DNA from: Catajapyx aquilonaris
Taxonomy: Eukaryota
Length of the DNA stretch: 57,696 nucleotides
NCBI GenBank assembly: GCA_000934665.2
Contig: JYFJ02002388.1
Span: 1 to 57,696 of the forward strand
Reading direction: 5' to 3'
Shown: in pieces, positions 5,398-56,243 of the stretch
How positions within the stretch are numbered: position 1 is the first letter of the stretch
Layout: each line of letters starts with the position of its first letter
Position numbers and translations under genes: made by a program
The notes under the pieces: generated by a model
Database searches by the model: none
What the model was told of the DNA's origin: nothing
The model's input: the letters and a program-made list of their open reading frames with translations, nothing else

Positions 5398-7223
5398 TTA
5401 CGTCCAGGGAAGCTTGTTAAGATATCTGTTCATCATCTCGTAGGACCATTTTGGCTGATCATGCACCACAATGTGGCCAGAATTTCTCACCACTACATAG
5501 GTAAGATTGTCAGCAAATGTGACATGACCTGCGTTGGCTCCATCAACCCTCCATACTGATGGGACAGCATCCCTGAATTTTTGGACACCTGGCCAGTTCA
5601 ACTGTTTCAGAAAGTACGGAAGATGAGTGTGGACAAATGTTATGTCCATGTTTCCGTGATAGATAAGTATTGGTAAACTGCTGTTGAGGATTTCTTCCAT
5701 TAGGTTCTGGATTCCGCTGACCAGGTCACGAGACATGTACTCTCCAACCGCCTGTGCTGCACCATAGAAAGTCTTGAATGTTTCGTTGCCTGCATGTAGT
5801 GAGCGCCGAGCATGTTTCAGCTGGACAAACTCCTCGTAATAAAAGTAATCACCAGGGGCTTTTTCCAGGGGAAGGAAGTCTGCTGTTTTATCATATCCAG
5901 CCACTTCCATAAAACGGTCACTCATTTGCCGTGCAATCTAAAAGCATCAGGATGTTAATTCCAATTATTCTCTTTGACAGACCAATATATCTCACCATTG
6001 CTGCTGCTGAAAGGTTTCCTTTCTTGTACTCTTCCAGAACCATAGCATACTGTTGCCTTCCCCAGTCTCGAGTGTTCTTGTCGATGAAGTTGACCTGGTA
6101 ATAGAAGTCACCTTTGTCTACCATTGCAATTGGGTCGACGAAACCACTGGCGATGACTATCCCTTTAAAGTTGATGTTTGCTCCAGCTTTGTTTTCATGA
6201 AGGATGCGCTGAGAAAGTGCAGCCGAACATTTGCCTGTCAACAAATATAAATCAATGTTCAGGCGGACTTGATTATAATCTAATGCATACCTCCAAATGA
6301 AATTCCCGCAACATAGAAATCGTTGTCTTTATACATGGGAAAGAGGGTGAAAAACTGGGTCAAGGCATGGAACAAATCTGTGGTTGATTGGGTCACGTTG
6401 GTAGCATATCCCCTCTCATCTCGGGTGAAGCTGAAACCACTTCCCACTGGTTGGTCGATGTAAATCATGTTGAACATTTTGGTCCAAGATGTTTTTCTTT
6501 TTTCCAACTTCAGGTTCTTGTTCACCTTGAAAGGACCATGCTGGACAAACGCACCGAAGAACCCATTTTCACCAGGTCCACCTTCCAACCAAATCATAAC
6601 TGGTGCTTTCTCATGATTTTTCTACAACATGAAACAAGACAAGCATGAGTTATAATACTAATAATACAGTAATATTTACCTCGCTTTCAATATCAGTGGA
6701 ATTATGTGATTCACCCACTTCAATCATTGTCTTTTTTTGCAGATTATTACATGATTATGAAGGACTATATAATTACTTCAGCAGGGAAGAACCAGAAGAA
6801 GAGATTGGACTGGTACTCCTCGTTGATGGTCAGGTATCCGGAGAAGCTCTTCACTTTTTCCGAGTGCATCCTGCGTACTCTGGCCAACTCTCTTCCTTCT
6901 TGGACACGACCAGATTCAATGTACGGAGTGAGGAAAAGATGTTCCAATTCTTCCAGGTCATTCTCAGAGTCCGCTTGCACCTGTCCACCTACGGTGCTCC
7001 CCAGTTGTCCTTGGAGAGGTCCTGCCGCAGCATGGCTACCTGCACTGTTACTCGATGTCACAACAGTGACGGCACATAACAAACCGACTGTTACCAGCAA
7101 GCCCATTCCTAATGCTATACCAGGTCTAGTCGAAATGACAGTGCGACGCTGTGAGGAGGTCCCTAATATAGGGGCTGTCTCCATCTGCTCCAGGATGAAG
7201 TCATCACTGCGTTTCATTGGCAT
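5398..7223 (-). CDS. Serine carboxypeptidase S10 (CPVL-like) copy 1, with a possible type II membrane anchor
   Basis: Exons with [44 protein letters not shown], nucleophile GISFGG, Asp in GNMDI and His in RNSGHIVVHDQP. GT-AG junctions are in frame. Confidence 0.92.
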
Positions 7224-7828
7224 TGTAGGTGTCGATATGTCAAGGAATCAAAGGAGAGTTGTGAGTGCGATATCATTACTGATAGATAGCCGACTGGGAC
7301 TTTGACTTGTGTTGTTAATTCCAGCTGCCAAACAGATTAGTTGTACAGTACTTAATCTTTGAGAATATGTCAAGAGATTACTGGAAGTTGTGGGTTTTGT
7401 GTGCAGGGTTCAAATGCGGGTATGGAAATTTCACAGATAATAAACCGACAACTGCATGGGTAAGGGATGTAAGTGCTGCAGAAAGGGATAATATTTTATG
7501 CACTATGAGATGTCTCTAATCTGGGATCAGCTGTTTATCTTCTCAGGCATGTTGCATAAGTTGTCGCGATAGGTTCATAATCGCAATTTTATAAGTGGAT
7601 GCTTGTTACCAGTTACAGTACTGTCACCCAGTGAGGCCTATACATGTGGTTAGCAACTCCCCAAAAAAGTGTACACCAGATCCTGGAACCAAGCCGGTTT
7701 GCACCACCAGGAAATAAATATCCGTAGTCATCGATTTAGGAGTAAACAATTTCCAAATACAAGTGTCAATGAATAAATGTCAAGTGTTCAGAAGGGCTGT
7801 TACATAACTGCTACGTACGATGCACTTG

Positions 7829-7830
<2 letters not shown>

Positions 7831-7874
<44 letters not shown>
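7831..7874. repeat. (TC)n microsatellite
   Basis: About 22 TC units. Confidence 0.97.
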
Positions 7875-7876
<2 letters not shown>

Positions 7877-7988
7877 CTGGGCTATTAATCACATTTAGGT
7901 TGATGACAGCACACAATCGGAACACAGTGTTGGATAAATAGTTATATTTTTTCTTTGGTAAAATTCTTACAGCAATGTAATTTTCATT

Positions 7989-9694
7989 TTATTTGCAGCT
8001 TTGTTCCGTTTCGTTTACATTCATGGCAACCTGCAGACTATACACGAATACTTTCAAAATCTCAAAGGACCACTCCGGCTGGTCATACACCACACAGTGT
8101 CCCGAATTTCTTACAATCGCGTACACCAGAGTATCAGTGAAGACGACACGACCTGCGAGTTCTCCATTCACTCTCCACACAGCCGGCATTGTTTCCTTCA
8201 ATATCTTCGCTCCTGACCAGTTTAAAGTTCTCAGATAGGGAAGCAGGTGTTCATTAGCCAATGTAATGTCCATATTCCCATGGAAAAGTAGGACTGGAAC
8301 TTCGGTGTTGAGGATTTCTTCCATGAGTTCCTTTATTCCGTTGATCAAGTCCGAAACCATGTAGGTAGTGACCATCGTACCCCCAGGACCATAGTATGGA
8401 TTGAAAGTCTCGTTACCAACGTGTAGTGAACTTCGCGTAGAGTATTTCTGTACAAACTCCTGGTAATAAAAGTAGTCGTGTGGTGCTGTCTCCAGTGGTA
8501 GGGAATCTGCTGTTTTATGGTATCCAGCCACTTCCGCAATGCGAGAATTCATATCTAGTGCCATCTGGAAGAGTCACGTTGTCATTGTAATTTTTTGAGC
8601 AGTAATTGGGCTTACCATTGCAGCTCCTGCGGTGTTTCCTTTCTTGTACTCTTCACGAACCATAGCATACTGTTCTTTTCCCCAGTCTAGGGTGTCTTTG
8701 TCTATTAGGCCTACCTGATATAAATAGTCACTCTTATCCACCATAGCAATTGGGTCGATGAATCCACTGGCAATGATCATTCCTTTTAGATTGATGTCTG
8801 TTCCCAATTCCCTTTCTCTGATGATGCGCTGAGCAAGGCCAGCAGCAAATTTACCTGTAAAAAAAAAGGGCGCTGGCACAATCTCACCCAACCTGGCACA
8901 ATCTCACCCCAATTGACTGCACCTTCGAATTTCTAATAAAGCAATTTGGCAAATTAAAACGCCAATCAGTACAAAATGGCATTCACAAAAATAAAACTCA
9001 CCTCCGTACGATATACCTGCCACATAAAAATCGTTTCCTCTGTACTCGGGGAAGAGGACTAAAAATTGGGTCAAAGCAAGGTACAAATCATCGGTTGATT
9101 CTGTCAGATTTGTGGCGTAACCCTTAGTTGATTTGGTGAAGCTGTAACCGCTTCCAACTGGTTGGTCGATGTAAAGCATGTTGAACAGTTTGGTCCATGA
9201 CGTTTTCCTCGATTCTAATTGCATCTTCGCATTTACTTTGAAAGGCCCGTGCAGCACAAACACCGCGAACAATCCGGATTCACCAGGTCCACCTTCCAGC
9301 CAGATCATAAGCGGTGCTTCTTCGTGTCTTATCTATAAATGGAAATTACTGGAAACAGTTAAACTGCAATTCATTATAGCTTAACTCCTAGATCTCAGTT
9401 TAAAACTCTTGATTTAATATATAAGGAAATTATTACTTCGGCTCGGAAGAACCAGAAGAAGAGATTAGATTGGTATTCCTCGTTGACGGTCAAGTATCCT
9501 GAGAAGCTCTTCAGTTTGGAAGAATGCAACTTTCTCACCCTGGACTTCTGTCGTCCTTCTAGGGCACGGCCAGAGAGGATGAATGGGGTGAGGAAGAGTG
9601 GTCTCAAGTCTTGGAACACTTTCGATGGATTACAATCCGAGACAGCATTATTGGTGGGTCTACAACACGAGGAGATCGTCGATAGAAAACCCAT
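7989..9694 (-). CDS. Serine carboxypeptidase S10 copy 2 (start uncertain)
   Basis: WLEGGPGE, GISYGG, GNMDI, RNSGHCVVYDQP; same exon structure as copy 1. The nearest in-frame ATG is at 9694 and lacks a clear signal peptide. Confidence 0.87.
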
Positions 9695-10348
9695 CGCTGT
9701 GGCTGTTATGATGGGCCTGGTCTGTAGGACAGTCCGGAGATGACGGGAAGATTTTGAGATAACATGTGCTGACTGAGTATAATATCGCTCGGCGGCAACA
9801 ATGGGTGGAAATGACAGTAAGTATGGAAACCAATACACTTTCGATTTGGTTTTTAAAAGCGGCAACAGGTATAGAAGAAAATATATTGAACAAGCTCATG
9901 TCTGAAGTCATGTGATGAGTACACCTGCTATAATCATATTATATCAGGTGTATACATACCATGCGAGAATGAACATTAACCAACAGTAACATTACCAGAG
10001 CCATTTGTTAGATTAATATCTTGGTAACTAATTCAGTTTTAATGGGAGTAAGGGACAAGGAATAAGCTACAAATTAATATTGCCATTTAGTCGATGCCGT
10101 CTTGTCACATATAATTTTATTGCTCCATGAATAATTGTACTGTATACTATTTGGCAAGGTTGATTTCTGGACTTGAGAATGATTCTTTTCAGTGAAATAT
10201 ATTGTGACACATCTATACAGGACTAGCAAATTGACCAGATGCGTTATTCTTTGGTAAATAATTTCCGTAGGTAATCAAGATTATTTAACACTGCAATGTG
10301 GTATGATTACTGATGGATTTGCATTTACCTGGTATTTTTTATTGGCAC

Positions 10349-12160
10349 TTAGTAATACTGCGTTAGAGTTCCATCAAGGAACTCTCCACGCAGAAACCTT
10401 CTCACCGTATGAAAGGACCATTCCGGCTGATCGTGCACCACAATATGACCAGCATTTCTTAGAAGTACATGTACTACATTGTCGGCAACTGTGACATGAC
10501 CTGCATTATCTCCATTTACCACACACACGGATGGCACTGTTCCCCTGAATATTTTTGCGCCCGGCCAGTTCAATTTTTTGAGATAGGACGGTAGGTGCTC
10601 GGGAGCTATAGAAATGTCCATATTTCCATTCAAAAACAAGATTGGAAGAGAAGGGGCGTTCAGGATATCTTCCATTATCTCTTGGATGTCGTTGATCATG
10701 TCAAAAATCATATGCTGGATGACCACTTGCCCTCCACCGTAATAAGTGTTGAATGTCTGTTTGCCAACGTGTAGTGAGCGTCGAGCTGGGATTTTCTGAA
10801 CAAACTCCTCGTAATAAAAGTAGTCGTCAGGTGCTTTAGCCAGTAGAAGGGAATCTGCCGTTTCTTTATATCCAGCTACGTCAAGAAAACGAGAATTCAT
10901 TCCCAGAGCAATCTGGAAGTATCAAGAGGACATTATCAATAATATCACTGTTGCATATGGATAGATAAGTGCATCTCACCATTCCGGCTGCCATGAGGTT
11001 TCCATTGTTGTACTCCTCCAGAAGAATTTCATATTGTTCCTTCCCCCAGCTTAGAGTGATGTTGCCTATTAAGCCAACTTGGTAGTAGTAATCACTGTTG
11101 TCCACCATTGCAACTGGGTCGATGAAGCCACTGGCGATAATTACCCCTTTCAGGTTTATGTTTGCTCCCGATTCGTTTTCTCTGATGATGTGCTGGGTCA
11201 GTGCAGCCGCAAATTTGCCTACAAATAAGCACAGTATTTAGCAAATAAGGCCTGGTTGCTGTTGATTGTGACATTCAGTTACTGTTTGCTGTTATCTTAT
11301 TTTACTATCAGCTCATATTAAATGTTTTCTCATTGTACTTCATCCTGGTGATAATAACCCACATCAGGGATAAAAACAGATGCTTCGCTGCTTATGAATA
11401 GTATAATTATGCAACATATTGCTTACCTCCATACGAAATTCCTGCCACATAGAAATCGTTTGCTTGAAATATGGGGAAGAGGGTAAAAAACTGCATCAAT
11501 GCGTCATAAAGATCTCTAGTTGATTGTGTCAGGTTCCTGGCATAACCCCTGTCGTCTCTGGTGAAACTGTAACCGCTTCCCACTGGTTGGTCGATATACA
11601 GCATGTTGAACATTTTGGTCCACGAGTGTCTCCTGGACTCCAGTTTGAGCCTCTTGTTTAACTTGAATGGACCGTTCTGTACAAACACCCCGTAGAACCC
11701 AGGTTCGCCAGGTCCACCTTCCAACCAAATCATAAGCGGCGCATTTTCATGTCCTTTCTGAAATAGCAAGGAGACATTGCTGCTAGAGTGGACCAATGTC
11801 AGGGCAACATGCGTTATCTTCAAAACTGATGTGAATATTTGGTAGCGTAATAGTTACTTCTGCTAGGAAGAACCAGAAGAAAAGATTGGACTGGTACTCC
11901 TCGTTGACGGTCAGATATCCGGAGAAGCTCTTCACGTTTTCCGAGGGGAACCTTCGCACCCTGGCCTTCTGTCGTCCTTCTTCGACCCGGCCAGATTGGA
12001 TATACTGGGTGAGAAAGAGGGGTCGCAGGGAATTGTCGTCGTTGGCCTGTTGCACTGGTTCACCACCGAGTTCTTGGGCAACATGTTTGTGGGATCTGCC
12101 ATGGGTCGTCGCCATAAAAGTAAGGGCACACAACAATAAAACAGCTAGCCACGAATTCAT
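10349..12160 (-). CDS. Serine carboxypeptidase S10 copy 3, secreted
   Basis: Signal peptide MNSWLAVLLLCALTFMATTHG; WLEGGPGE, GISYGG, GNMDI, RNAGHIVVHDQP. Confidence 0.92.
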
Positions 12161-27436: not shown

Positions 27437-29256
27437 ATGAGGGTGTTAGCAACCTTTTTGATCGTACTGTCAGCGACACTTGCGGAGGAGTGTCGCTCTA
27501 TATTAGAGTGTGACCGATACGACAATGGTCGCACTGGAGAGCCGCTTTTCGTGACACAGCTGCTGGAGAGGCAAGATGGACAAGCTGCCAGAAAAGCTTC
27601 AAGGGTGCTCGGATTAGGTGACAAAGTAGAGAGCTACTCGGGGATGTTGACAGTCAACCAGAAGCATGATTCCAACGTGTTCTTCTGGTTTTTTCCCGCG
27701 TCGGTAAGCGCTGAATACTTTTGCTGGTTCTGTTACAGCTGGTTACTTCAAATTACATAATTTGTAGGATGCTGATCGTACGACTGCTCCTGTAATAGTG
27801 TGGATAGAAGGAAGGCCTGGATCATCCGTTCTGGAATCTATATTTAATCTGAACGGTCCTTATTATGTGGACAGCAGAATGAATTTACGTGTACGTGAGC
27901 AGTCATGGAGCAAGAATTTCTCAATGCTGTATTTTGACAGCCCTGTTGGGTCAGGTAAGGAGTTATCAATGTGACAGAAAAATTGTTGCTCATTGGCTGG
28001 TCTTTGTAGGCTTTAGTTACACTGGCAGCGAAGAAGGGCTGGCCACAACACAAGATGAAGTGGCGGACAACCTTTTAGTTGCAATCAAACAGTTTCTGCA
28101 GACGTTTCCAGAATATGAGAAAAACGAGATGTACTTGGGTGGCGAATTTTACGCTGGCAAAATCGTACCTGTTCTGGGGCAAAAAATGATCAAGGCGAAC
28201 AAAGCACCGGACGTGAATATCAATCTGAGAGGTATACAGTATATTATTACTTAACAATTGATGTGCGGAGAAAGTGCGTGGGCGGTAATGACTACGTACA
28301 TTTGAACAGGAATAATAATCGGAAACGGGTTGACCGACCCTGCGTCTGTGATGGACTTGAGTGATAACTTGTATCAAAGAGGGTACTTGGGATACAACGA
28401 CCGCCTTCACTTCCGACTGGAAGGAGAGAAAATCATGATGAAGATCCACCAAGGAAAACTTTCAGACGCCTTTCAGGTAATTACTAGTAATACGTATAAC
28501 AACGTTAGAAAAAAATCGGGATGTGTTATCATAACTGATATTAATGTAAGAGCTTCCAATAATTAATAATAATTATTCGACATACAATAACGTCAAAAAT
28601 AATCGCTTGAGCAGCTTTTACATGACACGATGTGAAAATTGCAGGACATGGACTCGCTTTTTGGAGGAATTATTGAGAAGCAGACCTACTTCTCCAAAGT
28701 GACCGGATTAGAAGGCCTTCACAGCCTAACCCGCCGCCAAAATCCTGACATAGAATTACTGTACAAACATTTCAGCAAAGCACCCTGTGCACGCAGATCT
28801 ATCCACGTTGGAGACTTGCAATTTGACGGTAATTCCACATAAACAATATACATATGTACCAAAAATAATTCTACTCATTTTTGAGCAGCCATGAACGAGA
28901 CTGTGGTCAACTATCTCCGAGGCGATTATCTCAAGTCAGCCAAAATCTACCTGGAAACCTTGCTAAATCGGGGCAATGTGTCGGCCCTCTTCTACACCAG
29001 ATCGGATCAGGTTCTGGCCGTGCCGTACAGCAACACGGTGCATTTCTTGTCTCATCTGCACTGGAGCAGAACGCCTGGGTTTCTCCAAGCGACTAGAACG
29101 ATCTTGAGAAAAGGAGAAAATGTGGTCGGATACGTGACTGATCTGAAGGACTTGCGGCATGTTGTATTTACAGACGCTGGAACAACCGATGCTGACTTTT
29201 CAGAACTGACCTTGGACGCCGTGACACAGTTTATAAGGAGTAAAAGTAAACCTTAA
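27437..29256 (+). CDS. S10 carboxypeptidase homolog copy 5, predicted catalytically inactive
   Basis: Signal peptide and intact exons, but WIEGRPG, GEFYAG (Ser to Phe, TTT at 28147-28149) and FTDAGTTDAD in place of RNAGHMVP. TATAAATA ~60 bp upstream. Confidence 0.9.
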
Positions 29257-30168
29257 AAAGCGAGACAATTCTGTGGGAAAAAAATGAATATTTAAAACAA
29301 GAAAAATCTGGAAACATGTCTTCGAGTGGAAAATAAAAGGAAGACTCACATTTTCGCGCTGTATGTTGATATTATTTAGCTTAAAACATAAATAAATTAT
29401 TACAATTAATTATAGCAAAAATTCAATATGTAGGGAGGTGTATTTTCCGAGTCAACAGTTCATGAGCAATGGAAATGGAGGTGAAGTTATGGATTGTTTA
29501 CTCCAGTTCGAAGAAAAGCAACAATCAAGTAAGGGTGATTGCTCCTTTTTAAATAGTTGCTTTGGATAAACCATCCATATAATCGTTTCCTATACCTCTG
29601 TTCAACTGAGGATTTGCGCATATATTTATAATATAATATTGAAAATGATTCCAAACTTAATTATAATACTGTACAAGGAATGTAGACTATTACAATGAAA
29701 TAATAATAATCGTTACTGTAAATAACTTACAGAAACATGTGGAAAATAATTATTAACAATAGAATAAATGAAAAAACGGTGCTGGATAATACTTTATTAT
29801 AGTACTGTAAGGCAGAGAAGGGAAGGAATAAATTATTTAAATTATTATTTAGCACTGTCCCTAATATTGAGAAGGCATGCCCAATCATCACTGCACATTA
29901 TTTCCAATAATGGTTTAGCCGCATGCAATACAGTACAAACTTCCAGTCACATAGTGCCTAATAATCAAGTCATTCTCTTCTGACCTTTTTGGTAAAAACA
30001 ATGTCTTAATTAGTTCTGGACAAAACTTATAAAAAAAGCAAGTGCGTGTAAATTAGAGGCAATGACGCATTTCCACACATCACTGGCTATTCGATGTCGA
30101 AAGTACACCTTTTCAAAGTTGACCCGATCTCAGAAGAAATTAGGGCTAGTTGTGTCAAAACATTGGAC

Positions 30169-31824
30169 ATGGAGAGAAGCATAACCCTCCTGATAGTCGC
30201 CTTAAGCTTAGCTAGAAGCGAAATGTATTCACCTCTATTTTTGACACCACTGTTAAACAAAAGAGACATCGAAGCTGCTCGAGAAGCATCGCACGTGACA
30301 GGAATGTCTACCGATGTGTGTAGTTACTCCGGTTTCTTCACAGTCAACAGAACCATCAACTCCAACCTTTTCTTCTGGTTCTTCCCATCTATGGTAAGTC
30401 CCAAGTCACACCCATTTGCTCGTGTTAATCGGATCTGTTTTTATCCGCCAGAATAACCCAAAGGAAGATCCTATCTTCCTGTGGATCAACGGAGGTCCAG
30501 GATTTTCGTCACTTTTCGGTCTGTTTGTGGAACACGGTCCTTTTGCTGTTGGTAATCAGTATCAGCTCTTACGTCGGAATCATACGTTGGTCAACTTAAT
30601 GTCTGTCATTTACCTGGATGCACCGGTTGGAACAGGTTAGTACTGGGGATTAGGTGTAATTATAAGGGAGTGAACCACCTTCTTTTGTAGGTTACAGCTT
30701 CACTGACTCTGAACTTGGTTATTCCAAGAGCCAGACGGATATATCTGATGATGTGTATGAAGCGTTGAGGCAGTTTTTTGCGATGTTTCCTGAATACCAA
30801 GAAAACGAGTTTTATCTCGGTGGAACATCCTACGCGGGTATAGACCTCTTACGTGTATGTAAAACCACCAATTAGTCGTAGAAAAAATAAACCGCGTCTT
30901 TTTTACAGGGAAATTTGCTTCGTCTATAGCCTATAAAATTCATTTGGAAAATTTTGGAGGAAATTGTAAGATCAACCTCAGAGGTATGTGCTGTCTATCT
31001 GTCATTATTATGTGCACGTGATTAATTACTACTTATCTAATTGGAGGAGTGGCACTGGGGAATGCTTTTCTGGATCCTCTAACAATGCTGCGGAATAGCG
31101 ACGTGCTCTACAATGTCGGACTGTTGGACAAGGTCAACAAAGACTATTTCGATAGCCAGTATGACCTGATACAACATCTAATTTTGTCCCAAAAATGGGA
31201 AGAAGCATTTTGGGTAAATTTTGTTTAAAGAGGACTTCCTTCAATATTTTAGTCCGAAATTAATCGACTTCTTTCAATTTGCAGATATATGACAATCTGT
31301 TTGCTGGAAGCTTGACCCCGTACATGAGCCACTTCCACAACATTACCGGATACAATTACGTCTTCAATTACATCCTAACTGATCGTCCTAAGAGCTGGAG
31401 CCGCTACCAGACATTGGTGACATCCTCACCATTACGAAGAGCAATCCACGTCGGAAACCTCACGTTCAAAGGATACAACAAGAACGTCCTGCGTCAATAC
31501 GTAACCGACTATATGCAATCGGTCAAAGGTCAAGTAGAGTCTCTCCTGGAGAACAACTACAGGGTGCTCATCTACAATGGAGTACTGGACTTGCGCGTGC
31601 CTTACACCAGCACGCTCTCATTTTTGGATTCGCTGATATGGGACGGTTTGCAGGATTTTATGGTTTCGCCTAGAAGAGTATGGAAATCACGTGCTGATGT
31701 GCTTGGTTACATTAAGTCTAGTAGAAACTTGCACCAAGTGACAGTGCGTAACGTTGGTCATCTGGTGGCAGAGGAACACCCCTCACTGTTTGTGGAATTA
31801 ATTAGATATTTTATTGATAAGTAA
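30169..31824 (+). CDS. Serine carboxypeptidase S10 copy 6
   Basis: Signal [47 protein letters not shown]. Confidence 0.9.
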
Positions 31825-33098
31825 TTTTTTGGATGAAGAGGTATTCTTAGGTCCAATTGCATGAATTCTACTTTAGAGTCAGTTTCTAATTATTACGAAT
31901 CATGTACATAATAGAAGGTTTGTGAAAGTAAATTAAGTCAAACCTTAGATTATTCCTAAGTAATCGCGACAAATGTCGAGCTTACCTGATGGCCTTATTA
32001 ATCACCTTAATGTAGTAGTCATAAAATAAATTTCTCGAACTGTTAATTTACGCACTTTTCGTTGTTTTTTCAAAAGCAGACAACTCAAGGTCATGGGCAA
32101 ATACATAGTAAGCTTGGCCTTGATTTTTTTTCACACGCATCCGGTGTGCTGCATGTCTGTTTATTGCTCAGTGAGTAGAACATGCACTTTTGTTTGCCCA
32201 TTGTAGGTCAACATGAATGACATTATCACTTAACCTTCTCTTGAACCTTCTAGTCTGGATGAGTAGCTTACACACCGTTTATTCATGGCAAGGTATATTC
32301 TATATAATTACAGAAGTAACACATCATTTACTTTTTTTTTCAAGTGAATTACTGGGTCAGTGACCATCCCACGCATAAATTATCACATTCGAAAATAATA
32401 ATGACTCATCTTTTATCTCTCAGATTTCACGTCCACTGACCTTATATCAGAACGGCCCTTGAATTTTGCGAACTCAAGTTCAGGTTAGCATCATCGCACA
32501 AAAAAGGTTGTTTGGTAAGTCGATGAGATCGGCCAAACTTGCCTTGGGAAGTGTTATTAACATTGAGAGAGGTTAAGGTCCTTTCATTCTATCTGGGGAA
32601 TTGGCTCTGATACTGCTGCAATATATGTGATAGCCTTTTGACTACCGGTAGTCTACTAGGCTAATTTCTTGGGGAATATGATTGTCGTGTTGTATTACAC
32701 ACAAGGCCAATAATAATGCAAGGGCTCAATATTAATTGTTCTGTGATAATAAATGTCACGTAATCATTCGTTTTTTTCCTTGTAATTATTGCCTTACACA
32801 ATATTATTCTGTAGGTGTGCTTACGTAAGTAACATATTGCGACCATATTTTCAAGCAAATTGACAGATATTGTGTTAGATTTTTAAACAAAGCTGTTTCT
32901 TCATGCTACCACTGTAACAGTCACTCCAAAAAATACATTACTTGTTAAAATCAACTCGAAAAATCTGCACACACTTCTGCGCATGCTGTGATAAACAGGT
33001 AACAAAAAACTTCACTGCACCTATAATTATGCATGCAGACCACGACTCCTCTTCGTATAAAAGTAAACCAGTCAGTTGTTAACTCCTGTCGGTTGAAA

Positions 33099-35564
33099 AT
33101 GGCAGCAGCATCACCAATTGCGGTAATATTGACAGCGGCGACACTACTTGCAAGCGCTGTTAGGTGCGAGGACACTACTACTAACATAGTGCCAATAGCA
33201 GCTGAGGATGTGGGCGAAAGACTGTTTTTGACGCCTTTCATTGAAACCAACGACATCGAGGGAGCCATACAGGCCTCTCAGGTCACAGGAATTCATCCGG
33301 ACATAACGAGCTACTCGGGATACCTGACTGTCAACAAAGAATATGCTTCGAATCTGTTCTTTTGGTTCTTCCCTGCCAAGGTATAAGTATATGTAAACTT
33401 TATGGTTTACCTGCATAATAATATGGCTCATTTTTCTCTCAGGTCAACCCAGAGGAAGCGCCGCTGATTTTGTGGCTCCAAGGTGGACCAGGGTTAACCA
33501 CACTCATTGGGCTCTTTCTTGAACACGGGCCTTTTTGTGTGGACAAGGATTTGAACGTCACCCTGCGAGAATATGCGTGGACTACTAATTATTCAGTCCT
33601 GTATGTGGATCAGCCTGTTGGAACTGGTAATGAATTATTTTACTGTGTTAATTATTAGGCAATAATTAGTTTTCAATTAAATACGTATTATCATATCGTA
33701 TCATATCATATCGTATTATTAAATACGTATTTTCCTCTGATATGATTACGGTAGGCCTACTTCAAAATTGCAAACATTTATTTGACAAAATGTACAGTAC
33801 AGATGCGGTATATAAAATGGAATATACGTCTCTCTCTAATAAGACCAAGAGTCTCATCATGTGATAATGGAATAAAATCTATATAAATAAATAATAACAA
33901 TCAACTATAGATGATTACGAAAAATTGATATTTTTACCAATGGATGTTAATTTAAACTGACGATAAATTAACAATATTAACATTAGGAATAATACTATTA
34001 TAATACAGGGTATCTCAACTTTTTTGTCCTAACAGTTATTGGAAATATTGCACTAAGGTGCTTATTTGTTAGCAGTGACTTGCAACTAGGGATGCTTCCG
34101 TGGCTTTATCAGTTGAGGGATGTGCCAGGAATGTTGGGGCATATTCTGGCTATACATAGCTAGAAGATACATAGGCTTTTCCGATAAGTGTTCGGACAAA
34201 AAAGTTGAGACACCCTGTATAATGAGTACTTATCATTCACTTTTGCTTTTAAAAACAGACATTAGAACTTGCGCACTGACACCATAATAATTATCATTTT
34301 GTCAGTGGCATAATATTGCTACGTTGAAAGTCAATATTGCCCGAACCATATGACATCAGTAGGTTACTAATTCAAACGGTACTTTGTTATTGTGTTAATT
34401 AGGCATTTACGGCGCAACTTTCCAGGCTTTAGTTACACCGAGAAGGAAAGTGGATACGCTCAGGATCAGACTGACATTGTCCGAGATTTGTTCAACTTCC
34501 TCCGTCAATTCTACGCCCTTTTCCCCGATTACCAGAACAATGACTTGTACATCGCAGGGCAATCGTACGGTGGTAAGTGCAATAAGTGCTACAACTTGCA
34601 GATTGATTCTTAAAAATAATTATCGAACACATCTTGGTTTCAGGCAAATACGTCCCTAGCATCACCTGGAAAATCCTGCAGGAGAATTTTGCCGAAGTTG
34701 AAGAAATGCAGTTTCATCTTAAAGGTATCTAAATCCTGAACAGTCCTTGGACACCACTAACCGACTGATCATTGTCAGGTGTGATGATTGGCAACGGTCT
34801 GACTGACCCCCACATCCAGCTTCGAGGGTACAGCGACTTCTTTTACCAGGTGGGACTGGTAGACCAACAAGGCCGAGACCACATGAAGCACATCGAAGAC
34901 CACTTCAGTCACCTCCTGGGCTCAGGCGAAGTGGTTGACGCCTTCAAGGTAAAACCAATTTGCGTACGTCTGCCCAACCAAGTTACGTCACCTGCAATTA
35001 TCTCAGGTTATCGACGCAATGGTGATTGGCGATCTCCACCAATACGATTCGTACATCAACAACGTGACCGGTTTGCACGGATCCTTCTTCAACCTGGTGT
35101 GGCCCGAAGACCCGGTGGACTGGACTTACTACCAGGCTTTGGTTAGAACCGGTCCTATCAGACGCGCATTGCACGTAGGCAACCAAAGCCACAGCCATGG
35201 AAACAAGGAAGTGTTCCGGACCATGAGAGAAGACATCTTGAATTCGACCAAGCCTGTTCTGGAGAACATCCTGTCCACTGGAAAGGTCAGGGTTTTGCTG
35301 TACCATGGTCTGCTTGACATGATCATACCGTACGTGCCAACCTCCGATTTTTACAACTCGTTGGTCTGGGAAGGAAGCAGAGAGTACACTTCTGCATCCA
35401 GGAAGGTTTGGAAGGTTGGAGGAAAGGTGGCCGGATACGTCAAGGAGACGTCCGATCTGGTGACTGTGGCCATTCGCAACGCAGGACACGCTGCTCCGTA
35501 CGACCAGCCGCACCTTACGTACGACATGATCAATCGGTTCATTAGCAACCGGTCATTTGATTAG
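33099..35564 (+). CDS. Serine carboxypeptidase S10 copy 7
   Basis: Signal MAAASPIAVILTAATLLASAVRC; WLQGGPG, GQSYGG, HGLLD, RNAGHAAPYDQP. TATAAAA at 33056. Confidence 0.92.
34004..34219. mobile_element. Tc1/mariner-type MITE in a copy 7 intron
   Basis: TA-CAGGGTATCTCAACTTTTTTGTCC...GGACAAAAAAGTTGAGACACCCTG-TA. Confidence 0.88.
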
Positions 35565-37082
35565 GGAAGATGGATGGCGTTGCGTAAGCTGGTGTGATAC
35601 AAGGGTGGGTGTCAGTTTTATGGGTTGACGAGCGATTTATTTACGAGCAATAACTTGGATTGTAGTCAGTCTGGGTACGTCCAGATTGGAGAAAAGATAA
35701 CAGGGTGTGTCATAACGATTCAGTTTATAGTCAAATCATAGCATCATAGTGGTGTCTCTTGGTTTCTGTAGTGTCCTTAGTGGGCTTCAACCACCCTGTA
35801 TTTCGGGGTGAATTGGACAAACTTAGGAGTGTACCAAATTCAATGTTGTGTAAGTGCATATGACTAGAAAATAACAAAAAAATATTGTGAAATGAATAAA
35901 ATTGTTATTCAACTTCAAATAACTAATCTGATATTTGCGGTATTGCAATAATTATGCATTTCGAATACAGTATGTTGCAACAATATGACTCTGTTTAGGT
36001 TCCTTTTGATTCTTTGTATACCAAAACTTACATGGTGAATCCCGGATGACCAATTGTTACTCCATGAACAAAATATTCCAAAAATTCGATGCAATTTCTC
36101 CAGTTAAAGTAATAAAAGCGAGGAAGGGTGGGTATATCCTCTATTTTTTTCCTAATGATGACTAATAGCTTTATTCCATGACGTGAAAATTTACTGTAGC
36201 GAGGACCACACCCACTTACATAACTATTGACGTGAACGAATAAATTGGCATCAATCAATTTATGAGTGAGAGTGATCACAGGCTGCAATCTCCCAGTTTT
36301 CCTTTGACTGTGTGGGTTTAACGAGGATTTTTTAAATTGATCCTAAACATAAAAAATATTTTTTATTGGGTGCTAATAATAATTTGTTTAAAATTATTGC
36401 TGGTACTACTATTTGGTATAAATCATTTTAAATATAAAAATGCACTGCATGAGTTATTGGCTGTGAATAAGGCAAGCAAAAGTACTTCTGAGAATCTCGA
36501 GCCAAATAAGTATGTTAAAATATATGGTTATGGTAAAACACAAACACTATACTTTGATATCTTATTAGTACGTAAATCCCATTAAGAAATAACAACTTGA
36601 AATACAATGTATTATCTCCCAACCATTTAGTAAACGTATAATCTTGTGCAAATTCAATTATATCTGATGCCGGAATGGCGAAGGATGCGAAATGGCATCT
36701 GGGCAATAAGGTAAATGACTTTTTGTCACGAAACAAGGTATGGTAACGAGCCCACCTGGTTATCCCGGCAATGAAAAAAAACAGCGTAAAACTCCTATTA
36801 TGAGAAATCTTTTCAAGGCCTCTGTCACACTATTTTTTTTTGTTATCCAACAATCCCCCTCGTTTCCGTCGAAAATGCCTCTTCCTTCCCTACCTCAAGG
36901 CCTGGAGCAAACAAACGCTGACCATGGGACGAGGCTGTTAAAAAATTTTCCGTTTTAAAAAATGTGCATAACTTAGGCATTCATTAGTGTACTTCCAAGG
37001 TTCGTTCACCCTCCGGGCAGCAGCTTCACACAGCAAAAGGATCTGCTTCGAGATACACCTTCTTGTCGGATTTTTGGAAAAG

Positions 37083-39170
37083 ATGAAGCACAGTGTGGTT
37101 CAACTTTTGGTGATTGTGTTAGTAGCAGACATGTGCAACTCCAGAGAAGGTCCCAGAATAATATCCAGCAAAGTGGGTGACCCTCTGTATTTGACCCCTC
37201 TGATTGACAAGAAGGATTTGGACAAGGCTCGTAACCTGTCGGCGGTCACAGGTTTTATCGACGATGGTGTCCCCAGCTACTCTGGTTACTTGACTGTCAA
37301 CAAGACGTACAGGTCGAACCTCTTCTTTTGGTACTTTCCAGCTCAGGTAAGCGCACTTGATTTATAATTAGGATAGGTCATGCAAATGTGTGTTTTATTT
37401 TGCATGTCCAGAAGGCTGAAAAGGCGCCATTAATATTGTGGCTCTCAGGAGGTCCTGGGGCCACCAGCATGTTTGCGGTTTTCGTTCAGAATGGACCATA
37501 TTACATCAACGAAAATGGAAGGTTACGTTTCAGGCAGCATACTTGGACAGCCAATTATTCAATGTTGTACGTCGATCAGCCGGTGGGAACAGGTGAATTT
37601 TTTAAAGATTAAAGAAGTTACAAAGCAGAATGTTCAACAAGTCATAGAGATGTGCTAAAACATAATTTTTAAAGATTCTAATTATTAAACAATAAGAATA
37701 AAATGCCTTCTCTGTCAGTCTATTTTGTTTGAAAATTGACCTTATCTTGGACATTTGTGTCAAGAGCATTCATTTGAGACCAAACTGTGACTTTGATCGG
37801 TCAGAACTTTCATAATGTATATTAAAATTACAGGACACAATTTGTTCAGAATGGATTATATTTCAGGGTTTAGTTTCACAAACCATGAAAAAGGGTATGC
37901 ACGGAATCAAACAGATGTTACAAGGGATTTGTACAACGCACTTGTCCAGTTTCTCACTTTATTTCCTGAAGAGCAAAGCAGTGATATTTACATAGCTGGA
38001 GATTCATATGCAGGTAATCTGTTTGGCAATCTTTGTTATTCTGCAGATTTCAAACATGTGATTGATTTTCTGCAGGGAAGTACGTACCCAACATTGCCCA
38101 CAAAATATTTACGGAAGCAAAGCGATCACCGGTAAAAATAAAATTGAAAGGTGATATCTGCCACGTTTTTCGATTGGTTATTTTTAGAAGTATTAATTTT
38201 GAATTATTTTCAGCCTTAATGATAGGAAACGGTCTGACAGACCCTGTATCTAATTTACGCTACGGCGACTTCTTGTACTACTTGGGTCTTCTGGATGAGA
38301 AGACAAGAGACCACTTCAAAGAGCGCGAAAAGGTGGCCGAGAATCTTATCAACAAACAAGAATTCACAAAAGCTCTGAAGGTCAGTAGTTCCACTCCTTG
38401 TTTTTGTTGTGGCCTAAAGTCCACGAAATTCAAGGCTGAATATTATTTTTGTTCATATAAATAGCCAATATGCTAACTAATCGGCTTGTTTTGAAAAAAA
38501 AACATCTGACAATAATACAAAATAAATAAATATTTATATTTTTATTAATAACAAAGACGAAATGAAATTTCATAAATTATGCAAACGAATGATTGTTGTA
38601 ATTAATCAGGTGATCGACGAGCTTGTTCCTGGTGACCTGTCTCCTTATTCGACCGCCTTTGAAAACGTGACCGGTCTGACCCGATCCATCATCAACTTCA
38701 TGCGCGATTCGACCCCCGAGTACTGGAAGTACTTTGTGAGTTACGTCAATTCCGCTCACAGTCGGAAAGCCCTGCACGTTGGGTCCACCAGACTTCTATC
38801 CTGGAATAGAAAAGTGTTTGAGGAGATGGAAGGCGACATAATGCATTCGGCCAAACCATTGGTGGAGGAGATTCTTCAGAGAGGAACTAGAGTCCTCTAC
38901 TTCCATGGACTAATGGACATCCTTATCCCTTATGCCGGAGCTCAGACATTTTACAGGTCACTCAAGTGGGACGGGGCTCAGGAGTATCTGAAGGATCAGA
39001 GGCAGATATGGAAGGTCGGAGGTCGAGTCGCTGGGTTTGTCAGGGAGAGCAGGAATTTCGTGGAGGTTGCGGTCAGGAATGCAGGACACTTGGTCCTGTG
39101 CGATCAGCCATTACGAGCATTGGATTTGGTCAACAAGTTTATCAGTGGAGTTCATATTGGAGAATTGTGA
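37083..39170 (+). CDS. Serine carboxypeptidase S10 copy 8 (GDS motif)
   Basis: Signal MKHSVVQLLVIVLVADMCNS; WLSGGPG, FVQNGP, GDSYAG, HGLMD, RNAGHLVLCDQP. Confidence 0.92.
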
Positions 39171-40069
39171 AATCAGTCTGAATTAAATAGATTTTTATAG
39201 TGTACTGGCTTCATTTCCTACTGTAAGTGCCAGAGTTTGAAAAGGTGGAGCCTTCAGTGATTGCGAAAGGAAGGCTGAAACTGGATTAGATTCGGGATAA
39301 TCTTGTGTGATTCCGGGTTGTCTCGTCGTTGTCTCACATCCTTCCTGGAAACTCCGATGTGACGATACACCCCCGCTTTATTATGTTCAAACAAAATGGT
39401 ATTTCCGGACACAACTGCTTCCGCATCCAGATAGTCAGAGCATTTACCGATGTTGTCGTGTGACCAAGGCACACGCCAAATACATTATGTCGCATTAGGT
39501 TGTATGTAGCTCCAGTTCAAAAGGACCACTTTCAAATTTTCAGCACGTAAACATACAAAAATGGCGCACGCATAAATTCAGTGTAATCTCAAATAGATCT
39601 ATAGGAGAGCAAAATTGTGTAAAAATAATAAACAAGTAGACATACACCCTGATATAATTGGTTCGTAATTTGCAATCAATCACTACTAATGGCTTGTAGC
39701 ATATACGAGTACGTATACCAAAGATTAACACTTCCTGTCATGTTATGTTTTTATGACATTGCCCTTGGTGTATTTCCTAGTAGTTATCTAACTTACCATA
39801 CATATTCCATGGAGTGTTTTGGTAATTAGCATATATATCGAACAGCTCTCTGTGTACTAATAACGTTTCATTACGTCCTTTTCATCTTCACGGCAGCATA
39901 CTGGTCGATGCAGGTAATATGAATTGTATTAGTCATACTGTAGTATTATGTATGTATTATTTTTTGTTGCCTCTTACAGGCTCTAATGACAAATAAGCCT
40001 TTAGTCAATTTTCTATAGTATATAGATAGGATACTGAACAATTTCAGCTAGTCTCACATATCATCCCGG

Positions 40070-42020
40070 ATGCTGCGCCTAATCTACTTAGTGATTGTTC
40101 TGGTTGGTCAGATCTCATCTCAACACCATGCTAATGATGTTAAGGATGACCCTGACCCAGGACAAGCTCTCTTCTTAACTCCTTATATCGAAGAGAATCG
40201 CATAGAAGAGGCTCTAGAAAGAGCTCACGTACACGGAATAAGCGATGACGTCGTCAGCTACTCCGGATTCATTACTGTCAACAAAAATTACAACTCAAAC
40301 TTATTTTTCTGGTTTTTCCCAGCAATGGTAGGCTACCGTACAAATATTAAACATTTTATTACGTGATTTCTGATTTTAAAGTTGATGTGTTTTTCGACAG
40401 GAAGTAGAAATAGAAAAGGCTCCTGTAATAGCTTATCTGAATAGTGGACCTGGTTTGTCCTCAGTGAATACACTTTTTACCGAAAACGGACCATTCATGA
40501 TCGACGAGCATCAGCAAATGAGTCGACGGGAAGACACCTGGACAAAGTATCACTCGGTCATTTACATTGACTCTCCAGTAGGAGTTGGTAAGTATAGCAT
40601 GTCTTCGCATGTGAACTACTGGACACTGAACATATGATTTTTGCAGGATTCAGTTTCACGGACAGTAATCAGGGATTTCCAAGAAACGAGAGCCAAGTAT
40701 CCAAAGATCTGCATATCTTCTTGGTGCAATTTTTCACAATGTTTTCAAATTTACAAAGCAACGATTTTTATATTGCAGGAGAGTCTTATGGAGGTATGTA
40801 AATTATGCATCATATTTGGCATTACCTGACCTTATAATATTGTGCAATATGTGTTTCAGGGAAATATGCTCCTAGCCTAGCATGGAAAATACATTTTGAA
40901 AATCAGAAGTCTAGCACACGCATCAATTTAAAGGGTATGCTTATTCCTCTCGTTTCAAGGCGAATCGCACAATAGAGCACAACTGATGCAAGATTGAAAC
41001 TTGTTTTTCAGGCGTTACGATAGGAAATGGATTCACCCATCCGCAATACCACATAGACCGAACAGAATTGCTCTTCCAGCTAGGTCTTGTCGACATACGA
41101 AGCAAATATTATCTTGCCCAGAATGTCAAGCAAGTGCAGGACTTAATTTTGGAAGAAAAGTGGGATGAAGCAATGAAGGTATGGTGTATGAAGGATGAAG
41201 CACTGTCGTAGACTGAAACAGGAAAGTCCGTCTCTACCGCTGAGTCATTATGTTTCGCAAAAGAATTTCGCAATGAATAAGTTTTTGTTATAATGGGCGG
41301 AAATGCAATTAAAATCATCTATTGAAACAACAAAGCAAAGGTTCAGTCGTGAACAAATTAGAAGCAGGTTTCACTTTATTTGATTCATCTACATTGATAT
41401 GTTTCTCTATCTGTCCTTTTCAGAGCTTCTTTGAATACCTAGGCAACATGGGCAACGCAACTGATTATCATTTTTGGTACAACGTATTGTACCCAGAAGC
41501 GCCTGATGTCTACTTCTACTATATCGATTATGTTTCCAGCAACTCTGTCAAGAAGAAAGTGCATGTCGGGCACGTCTCCTTCAACCATTTCTCATCAGAT
41601 GTATAATGCTCAAATATTTAGCCTCCTTTTACTGGATTTGAAGTTTTGTGTTTCTATTGGTTCCAGGTGTACGAATCTCTCTGGCAGGATTTCATGAAGT
41701 CTGCAAAACCCGAGGTGGAATTCCTCCTTCAAAACGGGTACTTCGTCCTGTTTTACAACGGATTGCTGGACCTCTGCGTACCGTACGCCTCGACTGCTCG
41801 TCTTATGAACGAGCTGGAATGGGAAGGGTCCAAGGATTTCCAGGAAGCCAAGAGACTATTTTGGCATGTGGATGGAGAGTTGGCAGGATACATTCAGGAA
41901 GGACACAATCTCGTATTCATTGGGGTGAGAAATGCAGGTCACATGGTGCCATTCGATCAGCCTAAGGTGGCCGAAAGGCTGATTCGAGAGTTTGTATCAG
42001 GACGAATAACTTCCCAGTGA
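40070..42020 (+). CDS. Serine carboxypeptidase S10 copy 9
   Basis: Signal MLRLIYLVIVLVGQISS; YLNSGPG, GESYGG, NGLLD, RNAGHMVPFDQP. Confidence 0.92.
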
Positions 42021-43188
42021 TGGTAAATTAAATATGTCTCGTGACATAAAAATACAGACGGACGGTTATTATTATTTTGAGTAAAACCTTGACGGATACC
42101 TTCTGAGGATGAAGTCAGTTTCCTGCAGTTTGAAAGAAGAATGTGCCAGAGGGGAAAGGATTTACGTTTAAACACCTACACGTGACCGTATGCAGGGTAA
42201 AACGTCCTGGACTTACTTCAACTACAGTATTGTCCCTCTTCTGCAGCTGTACAGTATAATTCTACGCCAACCAGCAAGGTTGTGCATACTTTTGATGATG
42301 GGCAATAAAGTAATGCAGGCCATTGCCACTATTCGCTGTTGATCTGTTGTTGCCTTTTTCCTGTACCATGACGCATTATTACACAGGCGCTTGAAAAGAT
42401 AGCGCAAGTGGTGAAAATGATGCGAATACCACAATACTAGTCACCATCACAAACTGTTGAGAGGGTGATAGAATGATGTCCGAAGGCATGTTGGGAACCC
42501 TTAAAAGTAAGCAACCTGCTGATCAATATTTTATAGTTAATATGTGCTTTGTTTTTACTCGAAATTGAGGACTATTCCACTTGAAAACTTTCATTCCCTC
42601 CTAATCAATTCATAATATAACTCAAAATATTATTATCAGGTGTAATGTTTCGATAATTACAGATTTATTATTGAAGTCAGTCATTTAAAAGTGCGAACTT
42701 GCTTAACAAGTCAATTATAATACTTCCGATATAAGCCTCTGTGATCCCTGCTGTTGGATTACTTCACTCTTATCTTATGTGAAACACATGCCGGAACACT
42801 TGTTAATTGATATTTACGGAGGCACTTCCTCTCTACAATACTACAAATCACATCATTACTACAACCCTACTGCAGCTGTTGGTAAAATGAGTATTTACTG
42901 GTATTGAGAATAACAATAGAGCAGCCGGTATGACGATTTTGTTGTTTCTCTATGGCTGTCATTTGCCTGAGGCAAAGGCTTCACAGCTATACACTCTTAG
43001 CCTGATCACGTTTATTTTGGAATTACAAATGACATTTTTATACGTCAAAATGCCTTTTACGTGCCTTGGTCACGTATATTATAACGTGACTGGTCTAAGA
43101 GTGTATTATAAGATCAAACAAGTTGGAGTTACAATAAGAGAGTGTTATATTTTCAGCTTACGTCGAATAATACTTATCCATCTATACC

Positions 43189-45423
43189 ATGGTTCTACAA
43201 CGAGTGTACGTAGTGATTCTCTTGGCCTTTCCAATCGTGTCTCCACACCACAAAAATGACGTGAAGGATGACCCACACCCAGGACAGGCTCTCTTTTTAA
43301 CTTCCTTTATCGAGGAGAACCGCATAGAAGAGGCCCGAGAACAATCCCGAGTGCACGGAATATTCGATGACATTGTCAGCTACTCTGGATTCCTGACTGT
43401 CAACAAGAAATACAACTCAAACATGTTTTTCTGGTTTTTCCCAGCAATGGCACGTATGCAAAATACAGAGTATATAATGTTTCATAATTATTCAGACAAA
43501 CTTGTAGGGTAAGCTATTGGGCATTATGAAGAGGTGTCACTGAGTCTCTGCATGCATACAGTGTTGTAATTTGCATTACCCAAAAAGTGTTTCTTGTACG
43601 ACCTCCTTTGTCGAGGATACAACCTATGATACTTCCATCCTCTCGACAACGGCATGATTTGACAATGCCAAAGAACCTTGCAAAGAACTCATCTGTTGGT
43701 GCTTAGTAAGTCACCCTATGAGTCTGTCTGAATCGTTACAAAACGCCCTGAATGTTACTAGAACATATCTCCACACTCTTTTACTCAGGAGGTAGAAGTA
43801 GAAAAGGCTGCAATTATAGTTTATCTGAATGGCGGCCCGGGATTTTCCTCAATGAACACAATATTTACTGAAAATGGACCCTTCATGGTGAACAAGCATC
43901 AGCAAATGAGTAGAAGGGAAGACACTTGGGCGAAATATCATTCAATCATTTACATTGACTCGCCAGTGGGAGCTGGTAAGTAATATTTATTGTAACCATT
44001 TTGTAAAAGGTATTGTACAGTTGATGTAGAGTTGAACTGACTTTTTGGAGACATCTTTTTCAGGATACAGTTTCACAGAACATGATGAGGGCTACCCAAA
44101 AAATCAGAGAGGAGTGGCAAACGATTTATATGCATTCCTTGTACAATTTTGTACCATATTTTCGGAATTGCAGAGAAATGAATTTTATGTGGCTGGAGAA
44201 TCATATGGAGGCAAGTAAAACAGTGCAAAAATGTGTCCCTTATACCAGTATTGTTGTACTCATTGGTTGCACTATTTACAAGGTCTGCTGCTCATGCTTT
44301 TCAGGAAAATATGCTCCTAGCTTAGCCAAGAAGATACATGATGAGAATCAGAAGTCGGATTTCAATACTATAAATTTGAAGGGTATAGTGCTTATGACAC
44401 GTATTTCAGTTTTTTTATCAAGCGGTATGGTCACTGTTTAAAGTTTAAAATACTTATTTCATATCAGGATTAGATGACTTGTGAACATAAAGCTTTCTTT
44501 TTTCCTTTTCATGGTAGGCTACTATCAAAATAATTGGTGGCAAAATAGGATGATAATTTATATTTCAGGAATTACCATTGGGAATGGTTTCACACATCCA
44601 CTGTACCACGTAGACCGCGTAGATATATTTTACCAGTTGGGACTTATTGGAATAAATAACAAAAGCAACCACGAAGAAAATGTCAAACAATTGCAAGGCT
44701 TGATTTTGGAAGATAGTTGGGATGACGCCATGACGGTAAGGCGGTTTATAACAGCACTTTGCAACATTAAAAGTTGCTACTTCAAATTCCGAAAACAATC
44801 TATCGTGACTGTTATTTATGCCTTTTCAGAGTTTCTTTGGCTGCACAGAAGACTTGTGCAGAGAGAGTGGTTATAGCTATTTGTATAACCTTCTGGATTC
44901 AGAGCCACCTCAAGAACATTATTACCATATAGATTTTTTGTCAAGTAACGCCGTGAAAAAAATGTTGCATGCTGGACATACCTCCTTTTTCTACCACTCA
45001 GGAAAGGTAATTCAACGAGTATCACTTATCTTCAGTTTCGTAAATAAATTGTACTTCTATTGGTTCCAGGTATACGAGTTTCTCTGGCAGGATTTCTTGA
45101 AATCTGCGAAACCCGAAGTAGAATTCCTACTTCAGAACGGGTACCGTGTTCTGTTCTACAATGGATTGCTGGACCTCTGCGTACCGTATGCTTCGACGGT
45201 TCGTCTTCTCGACGAGTTGGAATGGGAAGGGTCCAAGGAGTTCCAAAAAGCCAGGAGACGATTTTGGCACGTCGATGGGGAGTTGGCAGGATATGTTCAG
45301 GAAGGACAAAACCTGATGTTTGTTGGTGTGCGAAACGCAGGTCACATGGTGCCATACGAACAGCCTAAGGTGGCCGAAAGGTTGATTCGAGAGTTTGTAT
45401 CCGGACGAATAACGTCTCATTGA
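43189..45423 (+). CDS. Serine carboxypeptidase S10 copy 10 (close paralog of copy 9; two GC-AG introns)
   Basis: YLNGGPG, GESYGG, RNAGHMVPYEQP. The last exon is highly similar to that of copy 9. GC donors at 43450 and 44211 are needed to keep frame. Confidence 0.9.
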
Positions 45424-55899: not shown

Positions 55900-56243
55900 A
55901 ATATTGAAACCCCACCACTTATCAACTGTTTTCAATATTACTTGGAATATATTAAACATATGAACGTTGTTGCGGCCTTTCCTTTCAACTGCTGTCCATA
56001 TATTCAGCCGGGAACATGACATTGGCATACAAATGTGCCAGTGTCATAAATTGTTGCCTGCCAATATACCAAACATTCGACCTCATAGTTTGACCATGAC
56101 TACTACGACGCCCTTATGTGACCCTCAATTTCAATAACCTCGTGCAGTTGTAATGAAGCAACCTATAAACTGTGTTGGTTCCAATGCACTTGATCCACAT
56201 AAATATATAAAAGCTGCAACACAAGTGGAACTATACGGTAGTC

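Follow-up and report, generated by a model that had tools for sequence, protein, structure and literature searches.

Three neighbouring minus-strand genes (copies 1-3, or W1-W3) in a 57,696-nucleotide stretch of the Catajapyx aquilonaris genome (assembly GCA_000934665.2, contig JYFJ02002388.1, positions 1 to 57,696 of the forward strand; hereafter the window) encode CPVL-type proteins of the serine carboxypeptidase family S10 in which the catalytic triad is kept and the site for the substrate carboxylate is altered. Judged by their sequences, they are, with a fourth copy elsewhere in the genome, a real, selected and lineage-specific S10/CPVL variant by descent. Of the residues expected at a carboxylate site (N/Q51, G52, E65, E145 and H397, in the numbering of yeast carboxypeptidase Y, CPY), G52 and H397 are present and the others are replaced by E51, Q/L65 and I145.

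In CPY, the substrate carboxylate is bound by N51, G52, protonated E145 and H397, and E65 and W49 orient these residues. Copies 1-3 have WLEGGPGE in common; the motif around position 65 is FVQHGP in copy 1, FVLHGP in copy 2 and FVQNGP in copy 3, and the nucleophile motif is GISFGG in copy 1 and GISYGG in copies 2 and 3, its last glycine being split by a phase-1 GT-AG intron. IASG and GNMD are present in all three, and the His motif reads GHIVV, GHCVV and GHIVV, respectively. All motifs and positions given in a preliminary description of this DNA were found on the minus strand, and its by-eye residue equivalences were supported by HMMER alignments, in which E51, Q65, I145 and the Ser correspond to N55, E69, E149 and S150 of cathepsin A, and the GNMD Asp and the GHIVV His to D338 and H397-M398-V399-P400 of CPY. 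CPY numbers (including G175, N176, L178 and I340) were read off the CPY structure sequence, which shows Ala65/Ala145 for entry 1CPY; exon 3, searched alone, matched no S10 structure, and its numbering was likewise taken from that sequence.

The clade of four members carries E51, E56, Q/L65, I145, A153, A175, S176, N336, T/S340 and V400, and keeps W49, G52, G53, S146, D338 and H397. Position 65 varies within it (Q, L, Q, Q), as would be expected of a freed site. The S1 pocket is further changed by L178F, I340T/S and replacement of C341 by F, L or I. The preliminary description had regarded the whole carboxylate-binding network as co-substituted: positions 51, 65 and 145 are indeed changed, whereas W49, G52 and H397 are kept. 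On the evidence of its residues, the network is half replaced, with both sides of the scissile bond altered. The catalytic Ser, Asp (in GNMD) and His do remain in all three copies, as had been noted; the triad and G52-G53 are retained in four of four members despite varying Ser and His codons, and none has the loss of a triad residue that would mark a pseudoenzyme. The separate change to E56, the S1-pocket changes and the fourth copy are additions to the earlier account.

Copy 1 (5398..7223, minus strand) has exons at 7223-6777, 6621-6291, 6234-5996 and 5937-5398 and encodes 518 amino acids from the first in-frame ATG, with E51 at 6585, E56 at 6570, Q65 at 6543, I145 at 6303, S146 at 6300, D338 at 5646 and H397 at 5475. 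Copy 2 (7989..9694, minus strand), known as a gene model only, encodes 467 amino acids in exons 9694-9437, 9332-9002, 8854-8616 and 8564-7989; its corresponding sites are E51 9296, E56 9281, L65 9254, I145 9014, S146 9011, D338 8270 and H397 8099. Copy 3 (10349..12160, minus strand; exons 12160-11858, 11757-11427, 11218-10980 and 10912-10349; 478 amino acids) has E51 at 11721, E56 at 11706, Q65 at 11679, I145 at 11439, S146 at 11436, D338 at 10618 and H397 at 10447. All three spliced frames are open, with no internal stop, four exons each and only GT-AG introns. Their place in S10 is shown by Ser, Asp and His in the family's order, the GGPG oxyanion loop and matches to Pfam PF00450 (Peptidase_S10; cut-off 21.9 bits), in which copy 3 scores 124 bits with its exon 2 (E 1e-35) and copy 1 scores 84 bits with its exon 4. 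A frameshift or mis-splicing as the origin of GISYG was ruled out, the Ile and Ser codons lying inside exon 2, and so was an assembly error: the codons in question are identical in DNA run X1, which could itself be what the assembly was built from, and, for copy 1, in run X5.

The N-terminus of copy 3 resembles a signal peptide. In copy 1, whose start is predicted, a 39-residue extension precedes the hydrophobic stretch, and a later ATG at 7106 opens a signal-peptide-like segment. Copy 2 begins MGFLSTISSCC (9694-9660, minus strand) and the fourth member, C1374a, begins MWFCG (L001 4364-4438, plus strand), neither with a clear hydrophobic signal; either an upstream exon was missed or these proteins have left the secretory route. 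Between two and five N-glycosylation sequons are retained in all clade members.

To judge how unusual these residues are, we used a reference set of 117 CPVL-type proteins from database searches, six of them from the exon-2 and profile searches described below (five longer than 520 amino acids and five of a mite clade described below were dropped), which is biased to conserved orthologues. In this set, Q51 was found in 115 proteins, E65 in 117, E145 in 115, P153 in 116, G175 in 117, Q336 in 111, I340 in 117 and P400 in 114. Since positions 65, 145, 175 and 400 are near-invariant in the references, the residues of the copies are not chance variation. The Glu at position 51 was thus confirmed, with the correction that the subfamily residue is Gln and not the Asn of CPY, hence a one-base change of Q to E; similarly, in the reported shift from GHMVP to GH[IC]VV, P400V is diagnostic whereas Ile398 is more frequent in CPVL proteins than any other residue (67 of 117). 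E51 alone is not unique to the clade, as it occurs with E65 and E145 kept in a same-genome paralogue (C55f) and with intact E145 in two database domains. Among 119 columns conserved in at least 90% of the reference proteins, 72 are retained by every member of the clade, 27 are changed in every member and 20 in some; canonical paralogues on contigs C55 and C396 change 9-15 and the other window paralogues 20-41.

The fourth member lies on contig C1374 (L001 4439-6096) and was found in searches of the 286 Mb assembly, whose 36 and 20 matches included four members of the clade (all lower bounds). In trees, all run in 'quick' mode and without plant sequences, the four copies formed one clade (SH-like approximate likelihood ratio support 100) with a stem of 1.1-1.3 changes per site and short tips. 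The clade falls within CPVL-type proteins, has the PLFLTP motif and lacks Cys56; its exact sister group was not settled by the trees. Pairwise identity is 61-64% within the clade and 34-37% between copies 1-3 and same-genome paralogues over the whole protein. Nei-Gojobori ratios of nonsynonymous to synonymous divergence (dN/dS) among copies 1-3 were 0.21, 0.30 and 0.24 at dS 1.17, 0.89 and 1.02, and dS to C1374a was saturated; these conservation and selection counts omit the partial genes W13, C55a and C55b, and C1028a of another subfamily. E51, E56, I145, A175, S176, N336 and V400 are invariant in four of four members, where 184 of 424 columns are invariant, a probability of about 0.003 for all seven if columns are independent. 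Run X5, which is not recorded as RNA, has a contig lacking the three introns of copy 1 at the modelled sites, and 11 codons of this copy differ from the genome, eight silently, two from F to Y and one from C to F. No spliced contig was listed in X5 for copies 2 or 3, and the missing cover of copy 2 carries no evidential weight; no RNA run containing these genes was listed in a run search. In short, a duplicate of a CPVL-type gene was remodelled once, in a single burst that was followed by constraint, and later multiplied to four genes. The earlier suggestion that retention across three paralogues indicates selection was borne out for selection on the changed site (dN/dS 0.21-0.30); the three copies represent one origin, separate origins of the changes being ruled out by the single clade.

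The same positions were then considered in other taxa. A phmmer search with exon 2 of copy 3 gave seven matches among 24 candidates of the longer proteins, at 48-54% identity, and a profile search of 1.84 billion representatives gave 7982 matches; the best 150 of these and the seven earlier matches yielded 216 domain rows, 197 of them complete at four sites. None of the 197 complete rows combined E51 with I145, and the search for WLEGGPGE plus GISYGG homologues in other taxa, which the preliminary description had proposed, was therefore negative within that set. A search of the ESM Atlas returned generic S10 clusters only. In the same sample, 17 rows with the Ser kept had no acid at either 65 or 145, and eight of them, from two lineages, had Q65/V145.

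One of these lineages is a clade of astigmatid mites (P0159, P0165, P0166, P0167 and P0103; P0166 is named Tyrophagus putrescentiae), with an intact triad, V145 in five of five, Q65 in four of five, and N336 with T/S400 in its three complete members. It nests with CPVL proteins of Dermatophagoides, Blomia and Sarcoptes; two members are named Rhagoletis and are presumably mite contamination. A tree uniting the mite and window clades was rejected with the trait columns removed (approximately unbiased test, p 7e-7, 24 rows), and the mite origin of Q65/V145 is thus independent. Changed conserved columns overlapped between the two clades at 7 of 12 (p 0.005). The mite protein P0159, folded as a proxy, gave an S10 fold with confidence (predicted local distance difference test score 90.9), with cathepsin A, Kex1 and CPY as its best matches. 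The other lineage comprises two-domain proteins from ENA (P0011, P0053, P0070, P0104 and P0113), whose second domain has S51, Q65, V145, GVSYAG, IASG or VASG and an intact triad, and whose first domain has G/Y65 with GHS[YF]G, so that the usual glutamates are absent from both. The second domains are 23-29% identical to the window copies and stand apart on the tree, which suggests a separate origin, though this placement involves long branches. Like the copies, both lineages have Q65, carry a beta-branched residue at position 145, have lost P400 and keep the triad; N336 is common to copies and mites, and A175-S176 to copies and the two-domain lineage. Unlike the copies, neither has E51 or E56, and their database records give no function. 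Two unrelated lineages therefore appear, from their sequences, to have made a similar active-site switch, and this recurrence supports selection on the changed active site.

What the copies do can be approached through the chemistry of CPY. Its ester hydrolysis needs none of the carboxylate-binding residues, and L178, I340 and C341 line S1. CPY is active on peptides, esters and amides as well as anilides through the triad S146/H397/D338 (PMC6609556). We tentatively favour, at a probability somewhat short of even, that the copies are active ester or amide hydrolases, possibly transacylases, for substrates without a carboxylate on the leaving group. Ser146 would attack with His397/Asp338 as relay and Gly53/Tyr147 as oxyanion hole, giving an acyl-enzyme. 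Ile in place of E145 and Gln or Leu in place of E65 would mean that the C-terminal carboxylate is no longer gripped and that the Glu-Glu pair tied to acid pH is lost; the new E51 and E56 would make the leaving-group side acidic, which would suit leaving groups or acceptors that are neutral or carry an amine. The acyl pocket would be reshaped by L178F, I340T/S and the change of C341 to F, L or I. The most likely role would be the hydrolysis of small-molecule esters or amides, serving digestion, detoxification or specialised metabolism; some copies could transfer the acyl group, as plant serine carboxypeptidase-like (SCPL) enzymes do. The substrate classes put forward earlier (esters, amides, cationic leaving groups) are in the same way extrapolated from CPY. 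An active enzyme is favoured because the triad is kept in four of four members while W5, in the same array, has lost the catalytic Ser.

Compared with known systems, the copies are closest to the CPVL branch of MEROPS S10 (vitellogenic carboxypeptidase-like; 'venom serine carboxypeptidase-like' is an automatic name), with PLFLTP, no Cys56, a single chain, the triad and the tree position in common, and differ from it by Q51E, E65Q/L, E145I, P153A, G175A, D/N176S, Q336N, I340T/S and P400V. They share the S-D-H triad, the GGPG loop, W49 and G52 with yeast CPY (1YSC) and human cathepsin A (1IVY), to whose alpha/beta hydrolase fold family they presumably belong, and differ in the replaced N51, E65 and E145 and the absent C56 disulfide. 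The copies are a natural analogue of the engineered E65A/E145A form solved as entry 1CPY, in which both positions are Ala, but have Q/L and Ile there and two additional Glu. Acyltransferases of the plant SCPL group (clade IA; SMT, SCT, EpCAS and Sad7) resemble them in the S10 scaffold, the kept triad and the changed residue before the Ser, as far as the accessible parts of PMC11009366 and PMC7946891 show. In the former, this residue separates acyltransferases (GDSYS) from peptidases (GESYA), and the plant enzymes retain the triad, depend on it and have hydrolytic activity as well (PMC7946891, PMC13415971 and PMC7330524). The plant enzymes have GDSYS, 1-O-acyl-glucose donors and a vacuolar location, whereas the copies are animal CPVL-type proteins with GIS[YF]G and lack the GDSYS pentapeptide; an SCPL-type protein of Ilex (P0089) also has GISY. 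By best exon-2 matches and quick trees, the closest relatives of the copies are animal CPVL-type proteins. We consider it quite unlikely that the copies are the animal counterparts of plant SCPL acyltransferases, CPVL duplicates that became transacylases for specialised metabolism, with Q65 plus V/I145 (often with A175-S176 or N336, and P400 lost) as a recurrent signature of the switch that this arthropod, astigmatid mites and a two-domain ENA eukaryote acquired independently.

Several points weigh against hydrolases or transacylases of this kind. Pfam scans and reading of neighbouring open reading frames revealed no gene of an acyl-donor pathway next to the copies. Fast divergence is general in this array, and many of the 27 changed columns lie outside the motifs. 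The Q65/V145 rows are enriched, since the search profile was built from these copies; W7 and W8 overlap the mite changes too (p about 0.03), and labile columns weaken the mite overlap. In addition, packing alone may hold residues constant when they are buried in the active site.

Among other explanations, the copies might be peptidases for blocked or basic ends, in which ionised E51 takes the amide NH2 at the C-terminus and E56 gives a preference for a last residue that is basic. Such enzymes would remove amino-acid amides from amidated neuropeptides or antimicrobial peptides. The retained G52 and H397, the invariance of E51 and E56 in four of four members and the signal-like N-termini of copies 1 and 3 agree with this, and ionised E145 of CPY reportedly accepts the NH2 of peptide amides; the altered S1 pocket, and the 65/145 change without E51 or E56 in the mite and two-domain lineages, make it unlikely. 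Equally unlikely in our view is an ordinary carboxypeptidase that has been rewired, with protonated E51, perhaps paired with E56, replacing E145/E65 as hydrogen-bond donor and only side-chain preference or pH range shifted. Glu has disappeared from two positions (65, 145) and appeared at two others (51, 56), W49, G52 and H397 have stayed, and C55f and the two database domains show E51 tolerated in an apparently ordinary site. Nevertheless, above its pKa Glu51 would be expected to repel a carboxylate, Ile145 is unable to act as a donor, and position 56, a Cys in CPY, lies five residues further on the loop. This Cys is a disulfide residue in CPY.

A third alternative, binding or companion proteins whose catalysis is weak or silent and whose triad is kept for structure, would account for P153A, G175A and D/N176S by the nucleophile elbow and catalytic Asp (153 and 175 being fixed in 116-117 of 117 references) and for copies 2 and C1374a lacking a clear signal peptide. 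We hold it very unlikely: the triad is kept in all four members over saturated dS, whereas W5, the likely pseudoenzyme of the array, lost the Ser, the Asp and His-region residues, and A175-S176 occurs with an intact triad in the unrelated two-domain lineage. The idea of redundant duplicates drifting to pseudogenes, with functionless substitutions, could cite the large array with its many odd active sites and the lack of a listed spliced contig for copies 2 and 3. It is largely refuted by the open frames, dN/dS of 0.21-0.30, the silence of 8 of the 11 changed codons of copy 1 and its spliced, RNA-like contig, and has hardly any probability left.

Non-peptidase S10 enzymes are established in plants, as acyltransferases and hydroxynitrile lyase. 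In a literature search judged from listings, with most subscription papers outside its scope, we found no characterised animal example of such an enzyme, nor one of an animal S10 protein without E145. A selected, expressed animal clade with parallels in mites and a third lineage is a natural experiment on the role of E65/E145, and its motif can be used to flag genes wrongly annotated as 'CPVL' or 'venom carboxypeptidase'. A direct experimental contrast is offered by copy 1 or 3 and the neighbouring gene W4 (13618..15371, minus strand). W4, a CPVL-type paralogue 34% identical to copies 1 and 3, has Q51, E65, E145, IxGD and the same four-exon layout, and serves as a local control; two of its introns are skipped in X5.

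Motif scans, tblastn and a spliced aligner placed 13 CPVL-type S10 genes in the window, W1-W4 on the minus strand and nine more, W5-W13 (27536..57696), on the plus strand, with W13 truncated by the window end. Other S10 copies lie outside it, eight on contig C55 (two of them incomplete in the stretches analysed) and others on C396 and C1374. W5 (27536-29253, plus strand) is likely a pseudoenzyme by its residues, with GEFYAG (Ser to Phe), Asp to Gln, the His motif lost and G53 to Arg, in an open frame on the longest branch of the tree. W6-W8 (30232-39167, plus strand) keep the triad and have T, Q and D, respectively, in place of E145, which they lost on a branch separate from copies 1-3 in a quick tree; W8 also has S51, Q65 and a plant-acyltransferase-like GDSY. 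W9-W12 (40154-55896, plus strand) have Y49 and N51 (YLNxGPG), keep E65/E145 and have C, N or A for I340. A sodium:solute symporter-like gene lies between W10 and W11 (47542-50455, plus strand), its Pfam SSF matches being weak and below cut-off.

The array is flanked by the housekeeping genes NDUFB5 and MMADHC (825-1307 and 3635-4960, plus strand); the best matches of the NDUFB5 exon are 68-72% identical, in insects of several orders, and intron 4764-4874 of MMADHC is among those skipped in X5. Open reading frame pieces at 19700-21097 (minus strand) appear ankyrin-like by eye, and the one minus-strand piece scanned gave no Pfam match at E 0.01. Short dispersed repeats at 7648-7691, between copies 1 and 2, and at 8873-8917, in intron 2 of copy 2, have many loose-ended contig matches. 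Upstream of C1374a, an ankyrin plus protein-kinase-like gene (L007 130-1628, plus strand) and a long C2H2 zinc-finger open reading frame (L007 8086-9342, minus strand) were recognised by eye. A more distant S10 gene (C1028; L006 4749-5392, minus strand), which we take by its motif to be of the SCPEP1/RISC type, has an intact GESY-like site.

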